Source: Escherichia phage BB1. Taken from it: a stretch of 64,000 nucleotides of DNA. Shown here piece by piece: positions 1-9,112 of the stretch (position 1 is its first letter; every line of letters starts with the position of its first letter). Made by a program: the position numbers and the translations under genes. Location of the stretch: sequence record NC_106597.1; one strand, written 5' to 3'. The notes beneath the pieces were generated by a model, which ran no database searches, was not told the DNA's origin, and saw only the letters and a program-made list of their open reading frames with translations.

Positions 1-99
1 CCCCACGGCTGACAAAGAAGTTTGCGAGACTTCTCTTAACTGCCAGAATAGACCCGCCGATCTATCGGAACCTACTCAATAAGTAAACTTTATAGTATC

Positions 100-220
100 A
101 TTCTAGACAGGACTCGAACCTGCTATCACTTGTGCGGACTTACGAGAACCATTCTTTCACTCGAATCGAACGAGCTTCTGCCCTAGCCAAGCTGGTTTCC
201 CCATCAACCACGCTAGAATG
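100..220 (-). other. tRNA-like element(s), not foldable into a canonical cloverleaf by hand
   Basis: Two T-arm-like motifs in minus sense (GCAGG-TTCGAGT-CCTGT at 107-123; GCTCG-TTCGATT-CGAGT at 159-175); terminal 7-mers complementary about 120 nt apart; no clean anticodon arm. Confidence 0.25.
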
Positions 221-404
221 TTTGATTGTTTTCAGTGCAAGAGTCCGAGTCTTGGACACGACCGCTTTGCAAGTACATAGGCAGCTTATCATGAGTCAGC
301 ACTTCCGAATTGCTAGCTCCGTGTTCTGCACTGAAATTTTGTTTAAAGAGTCCGGTGTAGCAGTCCGTAAGGGTGCACCTACTGTAGCCTTTACTCTTTA
401 AATT

Positions 405-480
405 TGGTACACCCACTAGGACTTGAACCTAGAACCCTCCGCTTAAGAGGCGGTAGCTCTAACCATTGAGCTATGGATGT
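405..480 (-). tRNA. tRNA-Lys (anticodon CUU)
   Basis: Manual cloverleaf in minus sense: acceptor ACATCCA/TGGGTGT, D-stem GCTC/GAGC, anticodon loop CTCTTAA, T-arm CTAGG-TTCAAGT-CCTAG, encoded CCA. Confidence 0.7.
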
Positions 481-556
481 ATTATTATGCTTTGCAGTGC
501 TCTAAATATAGATACTTCCCACGCGGTGGTTATCTATACCAGCGTCCTGCAAAAAT

Positions 557-633
557 TGGCGCGACCGATGGGATTTGAACCCACATTCCCTCCCGTGACA
601 GGGGAGTACCATTACCAAGCCAGCCCCGGTCGC
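557..633 (-). tRNA. tRNA-Asp (anticodon GUC)
   Basis: Manual fold: perfectly complementary acceptor (rc of gcgaccg/cggtcgc), 5-bp anticodon stem with loop rc of gtgacag, T-loop TTCAAAT, encoded CCA. Confidence 0.75.
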
Positions 634-642
634 ATAATTCAT

Positions 643-828
643 TTACTCAGCTTTGAGTTTTTCAATAGCTGCATTAAGTTCTTTAAGAAACTCTTTTCGT
701 ACATTAAGACGGTTGAGACTTACTAGTATATCATGTTTAAGTTCTTCGATGTATTTCTTCTCAACTTCAATATTGTTGAGAGTGCTATCACGATGAACTT
801 CTAGCTGTGCAATTACATTCTTGGACAT
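643..828 (-). CDS. hypothetical small protein (61 aa, coiled-coil-like)
   Basis: ORF with GAGGAAAC RBS-like motif upstream of ATG; no recognisable domain. Confidence 0.4.
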   Translation of the reverse strand: MSKNVIAQLEVHRDSTLNNIEVEKKYIEELKHDILVSLNRLNVRKEFLKELNAAIEKLKAE

Positions 829-855
829 GCTTGTTTCCTCAGTTATTAATGAAAA

Positions 856-927
856 TGGTATCTGTGGCTGAATTCGATGTCAGCAATGATAGCTGGTTGG
901 CTACCGGTTTACTTAACTCTACACAGA
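856..927 (-). tRNA. tRNA-like element (possible degenerate tRNA)
   Basis: TGG (rc CCA) followed by 6-bp complementary termini (tctgtg/cacaga); T-arm-like gctga-attcgatg-tcagc; anticodon arm not canonical. Confidence 0.3.
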
Positions 928-930
928 ATT

Positions 931-1013
931 TGGCGGGCCGTGTAGGATTCGAACCTACGTTGTCTTTCGACATGGATTAACAGTCCACCGCCAAACCGCT
1001 TGGCTAACGACCC
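931..1013 (-). tRNA. tRNA-Asn (anticodon GUU) with unusually long 13-nt variable arm
   Basis: Manual fold: acceptor GGGTCGT/ACGGCCC, D-arm GCCA-AGCGGTT-TGGC, anticodon arm GTGGA-CTGTTAA-TCCAT, variable GTCGAAAGACAAC (GAAA tetraloop hairpin), T-arm GTAGG-TTCGAAT-CCTAC, CCA encoded. Confidence 0.65.
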
Positions 1014-1165
1014 TGAATTTGTATTGCTGACTAGGATTTTCACCTAGACGGAGTTAGCACCGTAGCGTGTAGCGGCATACCTCTCCAAACCGTGCCTCAT
1101 CTTTCAATTACGGAGACAGTGTTCCTACGCGTGCCTGAATTGATTTAACAATTCTTTCAGCAAAT

Positions 1166-1241
1166 TGGACGACCGCATGAGATTTGAACTCACATAAAAA
1201 GGATTTGCAATCCTTCGCCTAAGCCATTCAGCCAACGGTCG
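1166..1241 (-). tRNA. tRNA-Cys (anticodon GCA)
   Basis: Manual fold: anticodon stem aagga/tcctt with loop rc of tttgcaa, T-loop TTCAAAT, acceptor pairs with one G-U, encoded CCA. Confidence 0.75.
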
Positions 1242-1289
1242 ATTTATCTTGTTCTGTCATGTTGCTTCTCCAGTTCAATTTATGTAATT

Positions 1290-1318
1290 ATTATACAGAA
1301 CTTTTGGAAACTAAGCAA
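1290..1318 (-). promoter_or_regulatory. early promoter, sigma70-like (minus sense TTGCTT-17 bp-TATAAT)
   Basis: Plus-strand attata at 1290-1295 and aagcaa at 1313-1318 with 17-bp spacer; member of the repeated promoter family. Confidence 0.6.
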
Positions 1319-1583
1319 CTACATTTTTTAAGAATTTGATGCCTTTCTTTTTCTTCTTATATTTCCACGTTAATGGATTCTGTCGATTATGAACGCTTGA
1401 GATCTTTGTCTCGTCAAAGTTCTTCAATATCATGTAATCACAAGATAATTGTTCTAATGGAATGTGATCACCGTCAAAAGCATATACATAAGGCTGTTGA
1501 CTAGCACGATAATGATAGACTTTGTTAATTCTACGTTTCAGCGACTTATCCGCGCAGTAAATAAAGAAATTTTCAGGATGCAT
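1311..1583 (-). CDS. hypothetical protein (90 aa)
   Basis: ORF with AAAGGAG RBS before ATG. Confidence 0.5.
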   Translation of the reverse strand: MHPENFFIYCADKSLKRRINKVYHYRASQQPYVYAFDGDHIPLEQLSCDYMILKNFDETKISSVHNRQNPLTWKYKKKKKGIKFLKNVVA

Positions 1584-1600
1584 CAGCAGCTCCTTTAAAT

Positions 1601-1675
1601 TGGTGCACCCCGTTGGTAACGATCCAACCTCTCAAGCTCTTCAGGCAAGCGCTAATCCATCTCAGCTAAAGGTGC
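1601..1675 (-). tRNA. tRNA, tentative anticodon GAA (Phe); non-canonical (U-U mismatches in anticodon stem, T-loop ATCGTTA)
   Basis: Manual fold: acceptor GCACCTT/GGGGTGC, T-stem GGTTG/CCAAC, anticodon loop CTGAAGA; anticodon stem has only 3 of 5 pairs. Confidence 0.45.
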
Positions 1676-1681
1676 AAATTT

Positions 1682-1758
1682 TGGCAAACCTACTAGGACT
1701 CGAACCTAGACCGTACGGTTTTGGAGACCGACATGCTGTCCAGTAACACTCTAGGAAT
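1682..1758 (-). tRNA. tRNA-Trp (anticodon CCA), tentative
   Basis: T-arm CTAGG-TTCGAGT-CCTAG, anticodon loop CTCCAAA, encoded CCA; acceptor and D-arm pair poorly. Confidence 0.5.
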
Positions 1759-1766
1759 GCAGAAAT

Positions 1767-1843
1767 TGGCGTCCTGTGCGGGGATCGAACCCACAAATCC
1801 TACCTTGAAAGGGTAGTGACTTTACCAGTTTGTCTAACAGGAC
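1767..1843 (-). tRNA. tRNA-Glu (anticodon UUC)
   Basis: Manual fold: perfect acceptor (gtcctgt/acaggac), anticodon stem ctacc/ggtag with loop rc of ttgaaag, T-loop TTCGATC, encoded CCA. Confidence 0.75.
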
Positions 1844-2325
1844 TTAAATTGCTTATTGGATAGATTGTTAAACTCGGAAAGTATTTCGTTTACACCTCTG
1901 TCTAACACTACCCATTCATTAAGCCGTTCAGGAAAGCTATTATGAAGCATTTTCTCCGCTTCTCTAGCATTAAACCAAAATGACCAATGTATTAACTTAT
2001 AATCACGTAAAGGAGAATAGGTTTGGTAATTTCCTAATCTTGTTTTAGGATCAGAAGACATACCAATTTTTACATAGTTATCCCAAGCTGGGTTAGTTAT
2101 TGCGTAAATAAAACCACAGCTGGATTTTTCTCCAATACTTTTGTTATACTTGATAAAAGATAGTGCAGATAACTTCAAGCTATATCGACGATTACTATCG
2201 CGACCAAAGTTAGCTGTACCGAATGTGAGGCTTTCTAACATTAGATCTTTGTTTATATCAGCTGGTGAACCCAACTGTATAATACCCCTATTTGCAGCTT
2301 CTTGAATTATCCGATCAATATACAT
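1834..2325 (-). CDS. T5orf172-type GIY-YIG-like domain protein (putative homing-type endonuclease)
   Basis: 163 aa; motif CGFIYAITNPAWDNYVKIGMSSDPKTRL resembles the GIY-YIG/T5orf172 core; AAAGGTAAAGG RBS; stop codon overlaps the 5' end of tRNA-Glu. Confidence 0.55.
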   Translation of the reverse strand: MYIDRIIQEAANRGIIQLGSPADINKDLMLESLTFGTANFGRDSNRRYSLKLSALSFIKYNKSIGEKSSCGFIYAITNPAWDNYVKIGMSSDPKTRLGNYQTYSPLRDYKLIHWSFWFNAREAEKMLHNSFPERLNEWVVLDRGVNEILSEFNNLSNKQFKSC

Positions 2326-2342
2326 ATCCTTTACCTTTAATT

Positions 2343-2430
2343 TGGTGGGCGTTAATGGAGTCGAACCACTCGAGTCGCAATGACCAGGGATTTACAATCC
2401 CCTCCGCTACCACTTACGGAATAAACGCCC
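2343..2430 (-). tRNA. tRNA-Tyr (anticodon GUA), long variable arm
   Basis: Manual fold: acceptor GGGCGTT/AACGCCC, anticodon loop TTGTAAA, long variable region, T-arm AGTGG-TTCGACT-CCATT, CCA encoded. Confidence 0.75.
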
Positions 2431-2558
2431 ATATTTAAAAGTATTCAAATACTAGTTTAAACACTTTTAAATATGTTTCCAAATTAGATAACTATTATAC
2501 CAAGTTTTAAGGCACTGAGCAAGTCAAATTTTAAAGAACTTGCTCAGTGCTGTATTAG

Positions 2559-2834
2559 TTAGTCGAACTTAGGAGTGACAGTTAAGGAGAATGGAAGTTC
2601 GAAGACTTCTTCGCCCTCATCACTAACAGTAATTACACGACCTTTAAGTTCAGACATTGAAATATCAATATCAGCTTTTGCATCTGGAGCCATGCCAGCT
2701 TCAACACATTTAGCTTTAATTTCCGGCAGAAGTTCTACATCGTAGAAATAAAGCCATTCAATCTCACCTTCCCAGCCTTCCCAGGATTTACAGATTGCAC
2801 TTTCAATACCAGTTGCTATAACACGATTTTGCAT
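2559..2834 (-). CDS. hypothetical protein (91 aa)
   Basis: ORF with GAAGGAG RBS. Confidence 0.5.
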   Translation of the reverse strand: MQNRVIATGIESAICKSWEGWEGEIEWLYFYDVELLPEIKAKCVEAGMAPDAKADIDISMSELKGRVITVSDEGEEVFELPFSLTVTPKFD

Positions 2835-2924
2835 TCGTTAACTCCTTCATCAATTTATATAACTATTATACCAGAAATTTAAAGCAAAAGGCAAGTACAT
2901 TTTTAAAAATTCTGTTTGGAGGAG

Positions 2925-3131
2925 CTAAACTCCAGATTCTTCAGCTAAGTCTAGGCTAATAAGAGATATAGCCATAATTGCTGCTCCGTGTTCTCTTTCT
3001 CCTGTCTCTTTAGCTAGGGTTATAATATCAAGAAATTGCTTATGAAAGTCTGCAACCTCTTGAGTCATACCTGCCTCAGCAATCATGCCTTTAAGCATGA
3101 AACGTTGTGCGGTAATTTCGGGATTAGCCAT
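2925..3131 (-). CDS. hypothetical protein (68 aa)
   Basis: ORF with GGAG RBS. Confidence 0.45.
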   Translation of the reverse strand: MANPEITAQRFMLKGMIAEAGMTQEVADFHKQFLDIITLAKETGEREHGAAIMAISLISLDLAEESGV

Positions 3132-3291
3132 GTTGTTTCTCCAGTTTCATGTTTAATAGTCTACAAATAAAATCAATGTCTTCATCTGTGCCTAGATCTC
3201 TATCTTCAAGAGTTGCCTTGAAGTTTTTCGTCAATTCCATGAGGATAACTTCTCTAGAACGACGTGTTGGCGGAGGTGGATGTCTATACAT
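3124..3291 (-). CDS. hypothetical small protein (about 55 aa, proline-rich N-terminus), below ORF-track size cutoff
   Basis: Hand-translated MYRHPPPPTRRSREVIL...; AAGGAAATAAG RBS; stop overlaps start of downstream gene. Confidence 0.4.
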   Translation of the reverse strand: MYRHPPPPTRRSREVILMELTKNFKATLEDRDLGTDEDIDFICRLLNMKLEKQHG

Positions 3292-3305
3292 CTTATTTCC
3301 TTAAG

Positions 3306-3382
3306 TTGGTAGGGGTGGTGGGATTCGAACCCACAAAACCTGAATTTTAAGTCCAGTACCTATGCCAATTCGATTACACCCC
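3306..3382 (-). tRNA. tRNA with anticodon UAA (Leu-type) but short class-I variable loop
   Basis: Manual fold: acceptor GGGGGTG/CACCCCT, anticodon arm CTGGA-CTTAAAA-TTCAG, variable GTTTT, T-arm GTGGG-TTCGAAT-CCCAC, A73, CCA encoded; D-arm does not pair canonically. Confidence 0.55.
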
Positions 3383-3484
3383 CATGTAATCAGTTTATTA
3401 GTTGGTACATATTATAGCCTAGTGAAAATCCTACTACTAGTCCCACAAACCAACCAATATAATAATCTTTTAGTTTCACAGGTA

Positions 3485-3670
3485 TTATCCTCGTTCAATA
3501 TCTAGGGAAATACCGCAGTTAGGATTAATACCTGTACCGTTGCAATTTGAACAAATCCAGATATTGCAAAAAGTATCTCCTGCTTCTGCATCAGAACTTT
3601 CACCAATTCCCCTACATTCAGGGCAGGCACATTCTTCTAGCTCTTGCTTGAGTTCTTGAAACTTAGACAT
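3485..3670 (-). CDS. small Cys-rich zinc-ribbon-like protein (61 aa)
   Basis: CxxC...C...CxxC pattern (CACPECRG...CNIWICSNCNG); AAGGAG RBS. Confidence 0.5.
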   Translation of the reverse strand: MSKFQELKQELEECACPECRGIGESSDAEAGDTFCNIWICSNCNGTGINPNCGISLDIERG

Positions 3671-3679
3671 ATAGTCTCC

Positions 3680-3868
3680 TTAGTCAATTACTTTTGAGGC
3701 TTCAAGGGAGTCGATATAGTATACGTTTTCTACCATAATCATATAATCTGCCACTTTATCCATAGCTTGGGCCTCAGAGGTAGCTCTGGCTAACCTATAT
3801 CCTTTTTTATATTCATCCGGGTATTCTCTATCTTGAATAAACACAACATAAACTATGTATAATTCCAC
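3680..3868 (-). CDS. hypothetical small protein; start uncertain (GTG at 3868 or ATG at 3763)
   Basis: Track ORF 3680-4015 overlaps tRNA 3888-3965, so truncated to the first plausible start after the tRNA with a GGGGA RBS. Confidence 0.3.
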   Translation of the reverse strand: MELYIVYVVFIQDREYPDEYKKGYRLARATSEAQAMDKVADYMIMVENVYYIDSLEASKVID

Positions 3869-3887
3869 TTGTAATCCCCTAATTAAG

Positions 3888-3965
3888 TTGGTGGCTCCCC
3901 GAGGATTCGAACCTACGTACCTTCCGGTTATGAGCCGGGTGCTCATACCATATGAGCTTGAGAAC
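3888..3965 (-). tRNA. tRNA-Met or tRNA-Ile (anticodon CAU)
   Basis: Manual fold: acceptor GGTTCTC/GGGAGCC (with G-U), D-arm GCTC/GAGC, anticodon arm CCGG-CTCATAA-CCGG; T-stem only 3 bp; CCA encoded. Confidence 0.55.
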
Positions 3966-3971
3966 CAAAAT

Positions 3972-4065
3972 CTGGAGGAAGATGCCAGACTCGAACTGGC
4001 ACACCATGTTTCCACAGTTACTGGCTGTTTAGCAAACAGCTCCCTTACCTTTAGGGTTAATCTTC
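3972..4065 (-). tRNA. tRNA-Ser (anticodon GCU)
   Basis: Manual fold: perfect acceptor GGAAGAT/ATCTTCC, 3-bp D-stem, anticodon arm GCTGT-TTGCTAA-ACAGC, long variable arm, T-arm GCCAG-TTCGAGT-CTGGC, CCA encoded. Confidence 0.65.
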
Positions 4066-4087
4066 CGAATTTATAAGATATATTATA

Positions 4088-4609
4088 TTAGAAATTTAGC
4101 TTCATAGCAAGAAAATTTTTCAAGTTTTCGGTAGACATCTCATCTACATCTACAGGAGAAACAAAGCCGTTTAATTTTCTAGCAAATTTTTCACCATCGG
4201 GATCATTGTCTCCAACAGCTACCAATTTAAAAGGTAGTAATTTCAGTTGCTTTAATAACGCTTTTCCTGGAGAAGAACCCAACATTGCTAGGGCTGGATA
4301 ACCAGCGTTATGTAACGCAACTGCCTTAAATACAGATTCAGCAATCAATACTACTTTTTCATCTCCATTGAGAGTTTCTAGTCCCCATACACACTGGGTA
4401 GTAGAATAAGTAAAGTATTTAGCTTCAAAGGGGCACTTACCATGACCTTTTGGAGCAGAAGGATTATAAGTTTGATAGCCCCTCAACATCCCAGAGAAGT
4501 CATACAACGGGACTGTTAGCCATCCTTCTGGACTTAACCAGCAATGATATTTATCTGTATCAAATCCCCTAGATAAGAGGTGCTGTGTTAGCTCATCAAC
4601 ATTCATATT
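4088..4609 (-). CDS. Toprim-domain-like protein (about 173 aa)
   Basis: Conserved-looking E (IAESVF) and DxD (VGDNDPDGEKF) resembling the Toprim fold; start moved to MNVDELTQ with GAGAGGAACC RBS downstream of promoter 4637-4665. Confidence 0.45.
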   Translation of the reverse strand, partial: NMNVDELTQHLLSRGFDTDKYHCWLSPEGWLTVPLYDFSGMLRGYQTYNPSAPKGHGKCPFEAKYFTYSTTQCVWGLETLNGDEKVVLIAESVFKAVALHNAGYPALAMLGSSPGKALLKQLKLLPFKLVAVGDNDPDGEKFARKLNGFVSPVDVDEMSTENLKNFLAMKLNF

Positions 4610-4636
4610 TGGTTCCTCTCTCAAATTTATAGATAT

Positions 4637-4665
4637 ATTATACAGAGAATTTAGCATTCAAGCAA
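4637..4665 (-). promoter_or_regulatory. early promoter (minus sense TTGCTT-17-TATAAT)
   Basis: attata 4637-4642, 17-bp spacer, aagcaa 4660-4665. Confidence 0.6.
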
Positions 4666-4781
4666 TCAAATTTTTTAACTTTTTAGAGGAAAATCATAGG
4701 GCACTTAAGGGTAGCAGATAAGTGGTGAGGACCAAAATTTGTGACCCCACTAAAAATCCGGGGGCAATTTTTAAAGACCCC

Positions 4782-4810
4782 TTGACATTTTCGCTGGGGT
4801 AGTGTAAAGT
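4782..4810 (+). promoter_or_regulatory. sigma70-type promoter (TTGACA-17-TAAAGT) sharing the 13-mer TTGACATTTTCGC with the element at 34512
   Basis: Consensus -35 at 4782-4787; 17-bp spacer; -10-like TAAAGT at 4805-4810. Confidence 0.5.
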
Positions 4811-4872
4811 ATATGTTATGGATGAGTGATCAAAGAGACACACATTTTCTATATACTAGGAGGTGTCAAAAA

Positions 4873-5859
4873 ATGACAGAAGAAGTAGCTAAGAGTCCTG
4901 AGACCGTCGCTAGCGTTGCAGCAGAACTGCACCGTCACGAGGAATCAGATAAGAAAAAGTGGGAGAAGGTCAGAGCCTACGAAGAAAAACATCGTGAACA
5001 CGATGATGAAGAAGATGACGATGATGAACATTGTCATAAATATGGAAAACATAAAATGCAAGAACCAGTAAACGTATTCACTAGTGGCTTCCCTGGCCTA
5101 CTGGGTGGTTACCCAGCAAACGCAGGTGCTTTCGGTGGTGAAGGTATGGGACTATTCGGAGCTATCCTAATCGGTGCTCTATTAACAGGCGGATTCGGTG
5201 GTTTCGGTGGATTCGGTGGACGTGGTGTAGTTGGTGAAGGTACCGCAGTTGATGCGGTACTTCAGAACCAAGATACCGCTAGTATTCTAGCAGCTATTAA
5301 CACTACTCGTACAGAAGCTAATCAGGGTACTGGGGCTGTGTTAAGCGCAGTTAACAATGGTTTTAGCCAGACATCCCAAAACCAGAGCCGTGATACTCAG
5401 TCTGTACTAACTACGATTTATGGTACAGGTGCTAATCTGTCTAATCAGATCTGCCAGGAAACTCGCAACGTTATTCAGGGTCAGTTCGATCTTTCTCGCC
5501 AGATTGATCAATCTTTCGCAGCTAACCAGATAGCTCGTGCACAAGATAAATTTGATTCTGCACAGATCGCTTTCCAGCAGACTTTACAAACTAATAACCA
5601 GTTTGCCGCTGTTCAGGCTCAGATGTGTGCTAACCAGAACTCTCTGGAACGTCAGATCGCTGAATGTTGCTGTGAACTTCAGACTGCGATCGCTGGTGTA
5701 ACTACTGCGCGTATCCAGGATGAGTTAGATGCATGTCGCCTACGTGAGGCAATCGCTGCGGGTAATGGTGCTAACGGTCAGGTAATTAATCAAATCGCTG
5801 TAAGTCTTGGTGCAATCACTCAGACTCTGGCTGGTCTGCAGGCTAAACTGCCGGCTTAA
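4873..5859 (+). CDS. low-complexity protein: acidic/His-rich N-terminus, Gly-zipper hydrophobic segment (GGFGGFGGFGG), Q/N/S/T-rich C-terminal region
   Basis: AGGAGGTG RBS 7 nt before ATG at 4873 (track ORF starts earlier at 4813); by eye GC and codon choice look higher than neighbours. Confidence 0.6.
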   Translation: MTEEVAKSPETVASVAAELHRHEESDKKKWEKVRAYEEKHREHDDEEDDDDEHCHKYGKHKMQEPVNVFTSGFPGLLGGYPANAGAFGGEGMGLFGAILIGALLTGGFGGFGGFGGRGVVGEGTAVDAVLQNQDTASILAAINTTRTEANQGTGAVLSAVNNGFSQTSQNQSRDTQSVLTTIYGTGANLSNQICQETRNVIQGQFDLSRQIDQSFAANQIARAQDKFDSAQIAFQQTLQTNNQFAAVQAQMCANQNSLERQIAECCCELQTAIAGVTTARIQDELDACRLREAIAAGNGANGQVINQIAVSLGAITQTLAGLQAKLPA

Positions 5860-5880
5860 TATTAAGGGGAGGAGCCCATT

Positions 5881-6297
5881 ATGAGTAAATATGGTTTTGT
5901 AAATAACGGACTTAATCAAAGTATGGGCTCCCAGCAGCCCATTCCGGGTCTGGATAACCCCTACTTACAACAGTTGCAACAGCGTTTAGCAGAAGCGCAA
6001 CAGATGCAGCAACAACTCCAGCAAAACCCTGGAAGTGTGAGTCCTATGCAAATGATGCAGCAAATGAGCGGGCAGTCGCAAATGCCTCAACAAATGCAGC
6101 AACAGGTGCCTCAGCAGCAAGTTCAGCAACAAACCCAACAACCGCAGGTTTCTGCGGAAGGACAGGCAGTACTAGCCCTTTTCGAAGACTTCGCAAAGAC
6201 AGAGGATGGGAAACAGCTTGTATCACTTATGGGTAAGTTTAATAGCTTCTGCCAAAGCCAAGTTGCAAAAGCTCAAAATGGGGGTAGTAACTCCTAA
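5881..6297 (+). CDS. glutamine-rich low-complexity protein (138 aa)
   Basis: GGGGAGGAG RBS; long poly-Q/QM stretches. Confidence 0.55.
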   Translation: MSKYGFVNNGLNQSMGSQQPIPGLDNPYLQQLQQRLAEAQQMQQQLQQNPGSVSPMQMMQQMSGQSQMPQQMQQQVPQQQVQQQTQQPQVSAEGQAVLALFEDFAKTEDGKQLVSLMGKFNSFCQSQVAKAQNGGSNS

Positions 6298-6306
6298 GGA
6301 GGAAAT

Positions 6307-6501
6307 ATGTGTTGCAGAAAATCTGTTTCGTGCTGCCCAATGCCTGTAGCACGTTGTTGCTCTCCAGCAATGTTTACACAAATACCGGCGTTCAATCCCT
6401 TTGCCTTTAAGCCTACTCTTATCCTGCCCCCTAGAGTAGATTTTCAGTCAAGATTGGCCTCCCGTATGGGTGGTTGCTGTACACCGAGAGTATGGTTCTA
6501 A
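6307..6501 (+). CDS. small Cys-rich protein (64 aa, four CC dipeptides)
   Basis: TAAGGAGG RBS 5 nt upstream of ATG; followed by intrinsic terminator. Confidence 0.45.
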   Translation: MCCRKSVSCCPMPVARCCSPAMFTQIPAFNPFAFKPTLILPPRVDFQSRLASRMGGCCTPRVWF

Positions 6502-6511
6502 ACCAAAAACA

Positions 6512-6548
6512 AAAGCCCCTGCCGAAAGGTAAGGGGCTTTTTCTTTTG
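6512..6548 (+). terminator. rho-independent terminator
   Basis: Hairpin aaagcccct...aaggggcttt followed by T-run. Confidence 0.65.
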
Positions 6549-6556
6549 CCTTAAAT

Positions 6557-6592
6557 ACAGAAAAGCCCGCGCTCTCGTAGGAAACGCGGGCT
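6557..6592 (-). terminator. rho-independent terminator (minus sense), downstream of SPFH gene
   Basis: GC-rich hairpin gcccgcg...cgcgggc with T-run in minus sense. Confidence 0.55.
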
Positions 6593-6616
6593 TGGTTCGA
6601 AGATTACGTGTAACTA

Positions 6617-7564
6617 TTACTTGTTACGCATATCCATGATCATTTGACCATCGTAGCCAGTACCTACCACAGTCTGAGGTACACCACCTTGATACTTCTG
6701 AGCACGGATCATTTCAACTTCCAATTGCTTCCAACGAATCATCTCAGGAGTAATGGTACGTTGCAATGCGGCGTTAGCTTCAGCTTCTTTCTTAGCTGCG
6801 TACAGTTTAGCATCTGCGTCACGTTCATTAGCAATAGCTTGGTTGTTACGAGCTTCACGATCTGCTTCTGCTTGTTTAACTTTTTGCTGTGCTTCCTGTT
6901 CAACGCGAGCAAGTTCAGCTTTCGCAGCATTAACTTGCTCTTCACGAACTTTGGTATTCTGTACCTGTTCCATGATTACTGGCGGCAAAGTAATATCCTG
7001 AAGGAACACCTGCTTAACTGTGTAACCATATGGGCGTGCATACTCTTCAACTTCCTGTTGAATTGCAGTTTGCAATTGAGCCTGAATTTTAGCATCAAAT
7101 AAATCTTGTGCTTTAGGTACAGACTTACCAAACTCACGAATAGTAGACAGTAATTTTTCAGTTACATACTTGTCTAGTGCCTGATCCTGAGTACCTGCGT
7201 TAATACGGTTAATCGGTGCTTTAGAACCATCAAACTGCAACATAACAGTCAGGTCAACAGTGGATTTAAACTTATCCTGGCTAGGAACCTGAAGTTTATC
7301 TAATTTTACAGCAATATCTTTTGTACTAAAAGTATCGAAAGATGCAAACGGGTTTACAAGATGGAAACCCGGCAATACTGGATTAGGGTCTACTTTACCC
7401 AGGAATGTTTGGGTTTTAACCGTACCATCAGAAACAATAGTATATGAATTAAAAGCTAGGATTAAACCTGCTAAACCAACTACAGCACCAATACCCCAAC
7501 GTTTAATAGTACGAATTACTTTCTGCTCAGAAGTCAGTTCTTTCATATTTTTAGTAGCAAACAT
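6617..7564 (-). CDS. SPFH/band-7 (prohibitin/HflK-HflC-like) membrane protein
   Basis: N-terminal TM helix (IGAVVGLAGLILAF), SPFH-like core, C-terminal Ala/Glu-rich coiled coil; AAAGGAAAT RBS. Confidence 0.75.
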   Translation of the reverse strand: MFATKNMKELTSEQKVIRTIKRWGIGAVVGLAGLILAFNSYTIVSDGTVKTQTFLGKVDPNPVLPGFHLVNPFASFDTFSTKDIAVKLDKLQVPSQDKFKSTVDLTVMLQFDGSKAPINRINAGTQDQALDKYVTEKLLSTIREFGKSVPKAQDLFDAKIQAQLQTAIQQEVEEYARPYGYTVKQVFLQDITLPPVIMEQVQNTKVREEQVNAAKAELARVEQEAQQKVKQAEADREARNNQAIANERDADAKLYAAKKEAEANAALQRTITPEMIRWKQLEVEMIRAQKYQGGVPQTVVGTGYDGQMIMDMRNK

Positions 7565-7598
7565 ATATTTCCTTTGTTTTAGTTACAGTTAATAAAAT

Positions 7599-7673
7599 TG
7601 GCCGAGGTGACAGGATTCGAACCTGCATAAAGGAATTTAGAAGACTCCTGCCTCTCCCTTAGACTACACCCCG
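7599..7673 (-). tRNA. tRNA-Arg (anticodon UCU)
   Basis: Manual fold: T-arm GCAGG-TTCGAAT-CCTGT, anticodon stem with loop rc of ttagaag, acceptor pairs with one G-U, CCA encoded. Confidence 0.7.
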
Positions 7674-8172
7674 TTTAAGTATTTTTAAGAACTCTCGTAA
7701 AAACTCTTAAAAATACAGACGATACCGGGAGAGTCATAAGTCTCACTCATTAAGTATTTCAAGACAAAATACGGTAACGTCTATTATTTTCCAGTTTAAG
7801 TCAGGGTGACTTAGTGGTTATGTCCTGCGGTATATTGAGGACTCGGTTAGGCTTGGGGTCATGACTTCCCGCCTTTTGCTGCTACTCAACAGGAGTTATC
7901 GCGAATTACCTGTGCTATTGTGCACCATTAGTGACATCTCTCATGTCAGCATTTCCCACTTTGTGGATAGCTTGAAAAACTACTCCGATATGGAGAAAGA
8001 ACTTCACTATCCTAGAATACCTTCTAAAGTTCTTCTTTAGCCTGGACATAGTTAAATCGTAATAAAACTATTCAGCAGACTGGTTGGTTAGTCTGGAACC
8101 AACTACCGCGTGGTTTAGGCAGTGCGCAACTAACCTAGGAAGCTTTTACGTTAAAAGCATCAGTTATCCAGT

Positions 8173-8250
8173 TCTTACCGACCGTAGGATTCGAACCTAC
8201 ATCTTCCACCAGTTACGGCTTGATAATACCAATTATACTAGGACGGCAGT
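8173..8250 (-). tRNA. tRNA-like element (possible pseudo-tRNA)
   Basis: Canonical T-arm GTAGG-TTCGAAT-CCTAC but no CCA, mismatched acceptor and no clean anticodon arm. Confidence 0.3.
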
Positions 8251-8470
8251 GTTACTACATAAGTGATTTCCACACCCCACTATTTATAAATCAGAGAAGA
8301 GTTTAGGGGAGAGGTTTCAGACGCCTCATTTTACACGTTCTAGCCACTAACCGGGATTGCCGCCCCCTGTGTACTAGTTTTACAACTAACCCACCGACTC
8401 TATTCAATGCGCTCCGGTTGGGATTCTGCACTCAGCGTAATCGGCTCGCTGTTCCCTAATTTATGAATAT

Positions 8471-8499
8471 ATTATACAGAATTTATAAGCATTTAGCAA
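8471..8499 (-). promoter_or_regulatory. early promoter (minus sense TTGCTA-17-TATAAT)
   Basis: attata 8471-8476, 17-bp spacer, tagcaa 8494-8499; conserved caatttatgaa downstream. Confidence 0.65.
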
Positions 8500-8507
8500 A
8501 TGAATTT

Positions 8508-8942
8508 TTAGAAAAATTCACTAGCAATCAAAGCAGTTGTTTTACCGTCATAACGTCCTGGAAACTCTGCCTTAATGGTTTTCATTAAGAGAGCTTTGGT
8601 AATGCCGGGGTTTAGCTTAACCAGTTCTGCAAAGTATTTACGAATTTCAGTTTCAGTCAGTTGACTTGGCTGATACTCTTGCAGCATGGAATAAAGCAGT
8701 TGCTCATAGTCTACATCAGTAGGGACTTTCGTACCAACTTTAATAGCGCGCTGTTTTGCATTTTCTAGAGCCTTAATCTGAGCTTTCAGATAGGCTACAA
8801 ACTCGGTTCGAGTAACAATGTCTTTATCAATACGTTGCAGGTCGCCAATCATGGTCTGAAGATTAAGTGCCCGCTCTTTATCACCGTGAGTACGTGCTAG
8901 ACTAAGCAGTCCACGAAGGGTCGTTAGGATATTTTCACCCAT
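8508..8942 (-). CDS. hypothetical protein (144 aa)
   Basis: ORF; start overlaps stop of upstream small ORF (TAATG). Confidence 0.5.
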   Translation of the reverse strand: MGENILTTLRGLLSLARTHGDKERALNLQTMIGDLQRIDKDIVTRTEFVAYLKAQIKALENAKQRAIKVGTKVPTDVDYEQLLYSMLQEYQPSQLTETEIRKYFAELVKLNPGITKALLMKTIKAEFPGRYDGKTTALIASEFF

Positions 8943-9112
8943 TATTTCATCCCCAATGCTTGGTTAAAAGATTGTTCTGTCATAACTGCTGAGACTTTGG
9001 CGAAATCAAACTTTTTAGGGTTCGTAGTGATTTCAGCAACGTTAGAAGTTTTAACAGTTTTCGTAGTACGAATACCGCGAGTGTTAACACCAATAATTAC
9101 AACTGATTTCAT
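8942..9112 (-). CDS. hypothetical small protein (about 56 aa), below ORF-track cutoff
   Basis: Hand-translated MKSVVIIGVNTRGIRTTK...; strong RBS AATGAGAGGAAGCGAAAT before ATG. Confidence 0.45.
   Translation of the reverse strand: MKSVVIIGVNTRGIRTTKTVKTSNVAEITTNPKKFDFAKVSAVMTEQSFNQALGMK

Follow-up and report, generated by a model that had tools for sequence, protein, structure and literature searches.

The first 9 kb of the window, by which we mean the whole 64,000-nucleotide stretch of Escherichia phage BB1 (NC_106597.1) analysed here, matched 545 phage records, mainly Salmonella and Escherichia phages of Tequintavirus and Epseptimavirus, with Escherichia phage slur09 as the best match (97% identity). 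The region belongs to a T5-like phage (Tequintavirus) and forms its tRNA island, in which every RNA gene lies on the minus strand. ARAGORN predicted 10 tRNAs, and the Rfam tRNA model (RF00005), which overlooked the long-arm tRNA-Tyr, added those at 1604-1675, 3892-3966 and 8176-8247. Combined, the two programs yielded 12 bona fide tRNA genes (Lys-CUU, Asp, Asn, Cys, Phe, Trp, Glu, Tyr, Leu-UAA, CAU, Ser-GCU and Arg-UCU), consistent with an initial annotation that had counted about 12 foldable tRNAs from the letters of the sequence, plus one marginal tRNA-like element. The initial annotation had also reported tRNA-like elements with broken arms in the island, and such elements do exist: 100-220 corresponds to a tRNA-scaffold RNA, RNA2, 856-927 to a shorter one, RNA3, and 8173-8250 to a unit inside a long leader RNA, RNAX (Table 1). 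Automated tRNA and non-coding RNA scans did not resolve all of them into standard tRNAs.

On the evidence of sequence matches, the existence of RNA2, RNA3 and RNAX is already known from near-identical phages. The AJ604531 record ("Bacteriophage 5 tRNA gene region") carries the misc_RNA features rna2, rna3, rnaIV and rnaX. The note "tRNA-like RNA with unknown functions" goes with rna2 and rna3, whereas rnaX, 785 nt between promoter P16-17 and tRNA-Arg, is described as "stable RNA with unknown functions". In blastn comparisons with this record, the RNA2-bearing segment was 98.4% identical, the RNA3-bearing segment 97.8% and RNAX 99.5%, with the same flanking tRNAs, and the same RNA labels are present in BF23 (NC_042564) and DT57C (KM979354). 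In position, order and sequence (96-99.5% identity), the three RNAs agreed with these T5-group records. The initial annotation had suggested pseudo-tRNAs, processing signals or other small RNAs; the last of these is borne out by the AJ604531 features, whereas a degenerate or pseudo-tRNA label fits RNA3 at best. Because the elements are on record, the finding itself is not new. What is added here is a family of phage-specific tRNA mimics represented by RNA2, a modular structured RNAX, and a further tRNA-scaffold RNA at 1024-1163. A literature search returned no open paper describing RNAX, RNA2 or RNA3; the "stable RNA" status reportedly goes back to work of the Ksenzenko laboratory in the 1980s. 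As these loci are now left blank or mislabelled (tRNA-Ser, tRNA-Sec, tRNA-OTHER or small hypothetical proteins), the result is also of value for annotation.

The acceptor of RNA2 had been taken to be broken, but its terminal stem is intact (7-8 bp). After this stem come a D-like hairpin, whose loop has a conserved GG, and an anticodon-like stem of 5 bp; the 3' side carries a T-arm (GCAGG-UUCGAGU-CCUGU). In place of the anticodon loop there is a conserved domain of ~56 nt, which accounts for the length of the RNA. It comprises two short stems, a bulge (CGUAA), a second hairpin resembling a T-arm (GCUCG-UUCGAUU-CGAGU, loop UUCGAUU) and a conserved GG-containing strand. RNA2 thus shows each of the features by which a two-T-loop mimic can be recognized, namely helices in tRNA order together with an inserted GUUCGAUUC hairpin, a GG strand and a CGUAA bulge, and in the modelled structure it has a second tRNA "elbow". 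Neither ARAGORN nor the Rfam tRNA model called 100-220, even at E≤10 with lax filters, and no family in Rfam 15 matched RNA2.

The proposed fold was assessed in a MAFFT alignment of 10 sequences that was not fitted to the structure, with a hand-drawn structure of 32 pairs, slid-partner controls and 500 shuffles. In this alignment 93.7% of the cells were paired, compared with 33-42% in the slid controls, and changes on both sides were found in 20 of the 32 pairs, compared with 0-5; none of the 500 shuffles reached the observed values. Among 23 diverse members 93% of the cells were paired, and compensatory cells numbered 230 against 36-51 in the slid controls, in an alignment that was model-fitted and favours the structure. 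Two covariance models, R1 and the broader R2, scored positions 95-222 of the window at 151.4 and 133.7 bits, respectively; true members reached at least 98 bits with R1 and ordinary tRNAs at most 36 bits, the range for ordinary tRNAs over both RNA2 models being 20-38 bits. The matches to ordinary tRNAs were full-length, indicating that the scaffold of RNA2 is that of a tRNA. RNA2 is under clear structural selection and is not a decaying gene.

Distant blastn searches detected RNA2 homologues in 482 phage records, covering the Demerecviridae lineages Markadamsvirinae, Sugarlandvirus and Hongcheonvirus as well as a T4-like Acinetobacter phage, and the broader model found one copy per phage. The RNA2 motif was present at 47 loci in IMG/VR, including contigs of 14-359 kb that are unrelated to T5. 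All 23 of the IMG/VR loci tested gave a full-length RNA2 match (39-153 bits) in tRNA-rich surroundings, and the two that were checked had no cultured relative beyond shared tRNAs. By comparison, a search of genomes from 185,579 bacterial and archaeal species gave a single match, which lay in a metagenome bin on a contig of 167 kb. A comparison of RNA2 and RNAX with 5,426 complete Escherichia coli genomes gave no similarity, short complementarities being below its detection limit. Model searches found no homology between RNA2 and phage 5 RNA1, RNAI, RNAIII, RNA2H or RNAIV, and these candidates were rejected. In the T4-like Acinetobacter phages that carry an RNA2-like RNA (our loci L121, positions 1461-1587, which is phage Henu6, L126 and L146), the inner domain and the T-arm were clearly homologous, and the 5' terminal stem was not convincingly pairable.

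A further element of this kind was found in the 150-nt spacer between tRNA-Cys and tRNA-Asn, where the AJ604531, slur09 and MM-1 records have no annotated feature. It is ~140 nt long, lies 3 nt after tRNA-Cys, and folds into a terminal stem of 7 bp, a D-like hairpin, an arm of 10 bp, inner hairpins and a T-arm-like hairpin (CUAGG-UGAAAAU-CCUAG), a large domain taking the place of the anticodon loop. It is another tRNA scaffold with a large insert. The element was conserved in 218 records, including Klebsiella phages of Vequintavirinae, in which it lies between two tRNA-Ser genes; 14 of its 39 pairs showed compensatory changes, compared with 0-2 in slid controls, and the Rfam tRNA model gave no match at E≤10. 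None of RNA2, this element and the tRNA-like unit of RNAX (tRNA-like X) has a usable anticodon loop.

RNAX occupies the part of the island (7676-8500) that had been described as having no credible open reading frame (ORF) and as not especially AT-rich, and both descriptions hold: the longest open frame in 7674-8458 has 76 codons, the small ORFs are not conserved, and the G+C content is 42.5%, compared with 39.2% for the whole window. Upstream of RNAX there was only one minus-strand promoter (8499-8471), and no terminator was found before 6593-6563; the transcription unit therefore comprises the promoter, RNAX, tRNA-Arg, a 315-residue SPFH/Band-7 protein and the terminator. As annotated, RNAX extends in the 3' direction to the base preceding tRNA-Arg, that is, to the RNase P site. 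The SPFH/Band-7 protein (6617-7564, minus strand) has ~76% identical homologues in viral contigs of ~175-180 kb and ~90 kb.

Small coding sequences are annotated within the stretch in some records (for example, MM-1 and TrudiGerster), and an annotated T5 nick site lies ~1 kb away, near ter1, both of which would suit a stretch acting as DNA or protein (small proteins, an origin, a nick or a packaging signal) instead of as RNA. However, a coding role was rejected because stops or frameshifts interrupt each of the four small ORFs in T5 and Epseptimavirus relatives, and a strong promoter points into the stretch. In addition, the conserved helices use G.U pairs, which ties the structure to the transcribed strand; in helix P0, for example, such pairs, possible on that strand only, occur as UG:8/UA:4 and UG:7/CG:3/UA:2. 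We consider a DNA or protein role extremely improbable. RNAX is non-coding and modular.

The modularity was apparent from at least 33 relatives, in which conserved and variable blocks alternate; the initial annotation had proposed to check the conservation of 7676-8500 across T5-like phages. Between the upstream gene and tRNA-Arg the relatives had 783 to 1728 nt; homing-endonuclease ORFs occupy two sites in the long versions, and T5 is without the first ~150 nt. Since large insertions degraded a global alignment with more genomes, the region was aligned block by block and projected on the window. In P0, 5 of the 12 pairs covaried, and the block formed by P0, the tRNA-like unit and the adjacent hairpin had both-side changes in 11 pairs, compared with 0-1 in slid controls. 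In the core of ~200 nt, 15 of the 47 predicted pairs were compensatory (2-4 in slid controls) and 95% of the cells were paired (25-39%). The structures of both blocks were predicted from the same alignments as they were tested on, which flatters the comparison. The 16-mer TGACTTAAACTGGAAA was found in IMG/VR only in T5-like contigs and as chance matches. Among the relatives, the RNAX 5' domain gives way in L027, L049, L109 and L113 to a 160-residue ORF, labelled an H-N-H/HNH endonuclease by two records, and a different, 169-residue ORF (L024, L026, L047, L049 and L111-L113) lies just upstream of tRNA-Arg. In T5 (L013), the motif GTCACCTTGAC(T/A)TAAACTGGAA occurs twice, flanking an insertion of ~80 nt.

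The tRNA-like X module scored 35.5 bits with RF00005 (gathering threshold 29), with its anticodon arm left unaligned. The acceptor, D and T arms covary and the GG of the D-loop is kept, whereas the anticodon stem is only 60% paired, its loop is variable, and a longer extended hairpin is present instead in Sugarland. The unit as a whole has been swapped for an unrelated hairpin in two genomes that keep P0. tRNA-like X is under clear structural selection and is not decaying. Its homologue is marked as a pseudo-tRNA in the T5 record AY587007, and other records call it tRNA-Ser, tRNA-Sec or tRNA-OTHER or leave it unlabelled. Several Epseptimaviruses (L047 1827-1900, L049 1660-1733, L111 1621-1694 and L113 1933-2006) have a different anticodon arm, which ARAGORN reads as that of tRNA-SeC(UCA), with the loop CUUCACC and a weak stem.

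RNA3 differs from these elements. Its acceptor-like stem, 6 bp long, opens with a U.U pair and is accompanied by a 6-bp hairpin and a T-arm-like hairpin whose loop has 8 nt. Neither a D-stem nor a canonical T-loop is present, and an ACCA end is encoded, as in the tRNAs of the island. Its single-sequence fold was more stable than shuffles (z=-2.6); neither ARAGORN nor the tRNA model matched it, even at E≤10 with lax filters. As all 352 of its homologues were at least 90% identical, covariation could not be assessed. Its closest, weak likeness was to tRNA-Gly(GCC) of the T5 group (score 12.7; mean 2.3, s.d. 3.6), and an origin from a degenerate tRNA is plausible. This weak likeness, the missing D-stem and T-loop, the scant variation and the absence of RNA3 from TrudiGerster and S132 are what might be expected if the elements were neutral debris, that is, functionless tRNA pseudogenes in decay and spacer remnants of a recombination-prone island, as are the pseudo-tRNA label given to tRNA-like X by the T5 annotators and the fact that the region is dispensable in the laboratory. 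However, compensatory changes keep the helices of RNA2, tRNA-like X, P0, the RNAX core and 1024-1163 across genera and families, loops and junctions such as CGUAA, GG and the T-loops are invariant, and relatives of RNA2 persist in unrelated phages. Neutral debris is therefore disfavoured for every element but RNA3, and as a general explanation we give it little credence.

Table 1. Features of the BB1 tRNA island discussed in the text (positions in the window).
Feature	Position	Strand	Remarks
RNAIV, 5' part, stable RNA	1..77 (cut by window start)	minus	blastn match to AJ604531 rnaIV 5465-5567
RNA2, 125-nt tRNA-scaffold RNA	96..220	minus	98% identity to AJ604531 rna2; covariation; covariance model, 151 bits
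tRNA-Lys(CUU)	405..480	minus	ARAGORN, Rfam; in segment 341-552, which replaces ORF trn2.10 of phage 5/slur09
RNA3, 73-nt tRNA-like RNA	856..928	minus	maps to rna3 of AJ604531 and DT57C
tRNA-scaffold RNA, tRNA-Cys/tRNA-Asn spacer	1024..1163	minus	fold, conservation, covariation
tRNA-Phe(GAA)	1601..1675 (Rfam 1604-1675)	minus	two U.U pairs in anticodon stem
tRNA-Trp(CCA)	1682..1758 (structure checked 1685-1758)	minus	two U.U pairs in acceptor stem
CAU-anticodon tRNA, annotated Ile2 or Met	3889..3966 (Rfam 3892-3966)	minus	irregular T-stem
Intrinsic terminator ter1	6563..6593	minus	ends the RNAX/tRNA-Arg/SPFH-protein unit
tRNA-Arg(UCU)	7599..7673	minus	5' end sets the RNAX 3' end
RNAX, 785-nt non-coding leader	7674..8458	minus	promoter P16-17 to tRNA-Arg; 99.5% identity to AJ604531 rnaX
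Long A/U-rich hairpin, RNAX 3' end	7679..7716	minus	just upstream of tRNA-Arg
RNAX conserved core	7789..7990	minus	includes invariant AACCAC.AAGUCACCYUGACUUAAACUGGA
Conserved hairpin GCUUUU-AACGU-AAAAGC	8142..8158	minus	pair types AU/UA/CG at one position
Helix P0	8159..8267 (8254-8267 with 8159-8172)	minus	12 bp, two 1x1 loops; encloses tRNA-like unit
tRNA-like X, RNAX module	8176..8247	minus	acceptor, D and T arms kept; anticodon arm degenerate
RNAX 5' domain, variable	8268..8458	minus	absent from T5; homing-endonuclease ORF instead in some relatives
Sigma-70 promoter P16-17	8471..8499	minus	TTGCTA-17-TATAAT

We propose, as the more probable reading of these elements, that they are tRNA mimics, stable but non-decoding, which the early tRNA operons produce. 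Transcription of the island would start at early sigma-70 promoters and give long precursors in which tRNAs, small ORFs and non-coding RNAs are mixed. RNA2, RNA3 and 1024-1163 each retain the features by which host enzymes of tRNA processing recognize their substrates, namely a terminal stem of ~7 bp stacked on a T-arm and usually a GG D-like loop, and their ends abut tRNA ends. Most likely RNase P and 3'-end nucleases excise them, and they would then remain as stable tRNA-shaped RNAs unable to decode, because a 7-bp acceptor stem is a major RNase P determinant and Y RNAs have tRNA-like domains that undergo the processing and modification typical of tRNAs (PMC4201824). RNAX would be the leader released when RNase P matures tRNA-Arg, and tRNA-like X, clamped by P0 from its own flanks, would be disfavoured for excision and kept as a module of the large RNA.

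The same arrangement could serve as punctuation and nothing else, the tRNA-like folds being cleavage signals for RNase P or RNase E and the released pieces inert: RNA3 lies 2 nt past tRNA-Asn and 1024-1163 similarly close to tRNA-Cys, RNAX terminates exactly at the tRNA-Arg 5' end, and the acceptor/T-arm minihelix needed by RNase P is retained (PMC4201824). However, the RNA2 insert and the RNAX core are conserved well past the needs of cleavage, the neighbouring genuine tRNAs already provide cleavage sites, and the pairing of the tRNA-like X flanks in P0 would be expected to hinder RNase P. We therefore regard punctuation alone as unlikely.

As for the role of the mimics, they might occupy tRNA-binding proteins, either host immune effectors that target tRNA or enzymes that process or modify tRNA. 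This decoy step is speculative and carries only a small part of our confidence in the proposal. The T5 tRNA region is dispensable in the laboratory and deletion-prone, and T5 tRNA-Lys counters PARIS and T5 tRNA-Tyr counters retron Eco7 (PMC11464382, PMC12483538); a decoy role would fit the accessory, counter-defence character of such a region. When coordinates are mapped, the T5Mos deletion takes in T5 RNA2 and does not include RNAX.

Several observations weigh against the proposal that the elements are stable, processed tRNA mimics. RNA2, tRNA-like X and 1024-1163 lack an encoded CCA. No conserved protein partner was found beside RNA2-like RNAs in 20 loci, where only Seg-like homing endonucleases recur, and we found no link between these RNAs and any defence system. 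The RNAX 5' domain and even the tRNA-like module can be replaced. RNA3 is nearly invariant in sequence, its fold is a single-sequence prediction, and it is absent from some Epseptimaviruses, as noted above. The fold energies of RNA2 (z=-0.85), tRNA-like X (z=-0.32) and RNAX (z=-0.99) are unremarkable; as these single-sequence folds are no more stable than shuffles, they are uninformative. Finally, the "stable RNA" status derives from the annotation of the GenBank depositors.

A broader reading, which we advance only tentatively and think rather doubtful, is that RNA2 founds an undescribed phage-specific class of "two-elbow" tRNA mimics, that RNA2, 1024-1163 and RNAX take part in a tRNA arms race, and that RNAX is a T5-lineage analogue of the large phage RNAs GOLLD and ROOL. 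Representatives of the candidate class were found in tRNA islands of T5-like phages, in Acinetobacter T4-like phages and in jumbo-sized viral contigs. If this reading is true, the mimics might, for example, soak up a host effector that targets tRNA or an enzyme that processes or modifies tRNA.

Phage tRNA clusters now figure centrally in explanations of phage survival under tRNA-cleaving immunity. To our knowledge, no function has been put on record for the non-tRNA stable RNAs of such clusters (T4 species 1/2 and the T5 RNAs) in the decades since their description. With its firmly supported fold, its recurrence in unrelated virulent phages and its near-absence from cells, RNA2 offers a concrete, mutable target for genetics, pull-downs and structure determination.

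Among the genuine tRNAs, the U-U mismatches that had been noticed at 1601-1675 and 1682-1758 were located in the stems given in Table 1, and tRNA-Phe also has an unusual T-loop (AUCGUUA). The T-stem of the CAU tRNA, previously thought abnormal (3888-3965), is indeed irregular or bulged. According to a note in AJ604531 (phage 5), the Trp tRNA with a CUA anticodon is an amber suppressor; because it suppresses amber once its anticodon is changed, the mismatched tRNAs are functional, accepted genes.

Three differences distinguish the island from T5-group records: the tRNA-Lys(CUU) segment stands in place of ORF trn2.10, ORF trn2.10.1 is missing, and an ORF with a T5orf172 domain is inserted between tRNA-Glu and tRNA-Tyr. 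The inserted ORF (1834-2325, minus strand; 163 residues, T5orf172/MUG113 domain) overlaps tRNA-Glu with its end and probably represents a mobile gene for a nuclease; only a few bases separate tRNA-Glu from tRNA-Tyr in MM-1 and phage 5. Segment 341-552, with tRNA-Lys(CUU), resembles the Epseptimavirus arrangement, indicating modular exchange between genera. The 76-nt spacer between tRNA-Asp and tRNA-Lys(CUU) (481-556, minus strand) folds into a long hairpin of unusual stability (z=-4.19; none of 200 shuffles was as stable). The ~180 nt between tRNA-Lys(CUU) and RNA2 (221-404, minus strand) have no credible ORF and no significant fold, and Epseptimaviruses also have an unannotated gap at the equivalent position.

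Searches of 1-9000, 1-1020 and 7660-8470 against Rfam at E≤10 with permissive filters returned tRNA and chance noise, with no match to GOLLD, ROOL, tmRNA or Y RNA. Compared with canonical tRNA, RNA2 keeps all four tRNA helices in tRNA order and tRNA-like X scores above the gathering threshold, whereas the tRNA model detects neither RNA2 nor RNA3, and RNA2 and tRNA-like X do not share the encoded CCA. The T4 species 1/2 RNAs (rnaC and rnaD) are likewise small stable RNAs of unassigned role within a phage tRNA cluster, where they adjoin tRNA-Arg and a homing-endonuclease gene. A homology between them and RNA2 was rejected: in searches of T4 68500-74500 with R1 and R2 and filters off, rnaC scored 14.2 and 20.4 bits, respectively, which is in the range of ordinary tRNAs, and rnaD gave no match.

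GOLLD and ROOL are phage-encoded RNAs found near tRNA islands, and GOLLD has a conserved 3' part, a variable 5' part and sometimes tRNAs in the linker (PMC12286853). RNAX shares these traits, being a 785-nt RNA of a phage tRNA island with a variable 5' and a conserved 3' part, an embedded tRNA-like unit and several covarying helices, and it could accordingly be the T5-lineage counterpart of GOLLD/ROOL, a large self-assembling RNA with a tethered tRNA-like unit. However, even with the laxest filters no Rfam family except tRNA matches RNAX, so that the parallel is one of analogy only. In addition, the architecture of RNAX is mosaic: homing-endonuclease ORFs can be inserted, the 5' domain lost and the tRNA-like unit replaced. 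Its core was seen in Markadamsvirinae only, and its folding energy is unexceptional. GOLLD and ROOL assemble as homo-oligomeric nanocages (PMC12286853). That RNAX is their counterpart is, in our judgement, improbable. The YrlA-type bacterial Y RNAs are also non-coding and join a tRNA-like domain, with a T-arm, a GG D-arm and an acceptor-like stem, to a helix; some of them are substrates of RNase P and of the CCA-adding enzyme and carry tRNA modifications (PMC4201824). An RNA of this type is recognized by its place beside a gene for Ro60 (Rsr) and by the binding of Ro60 through a conserved helix. The present elements differ from them in matching no Rfam family except tRNA, and in RNAX the extra helix leaves the tRNA-like unit from the acceptor side instead of the anticodon side.

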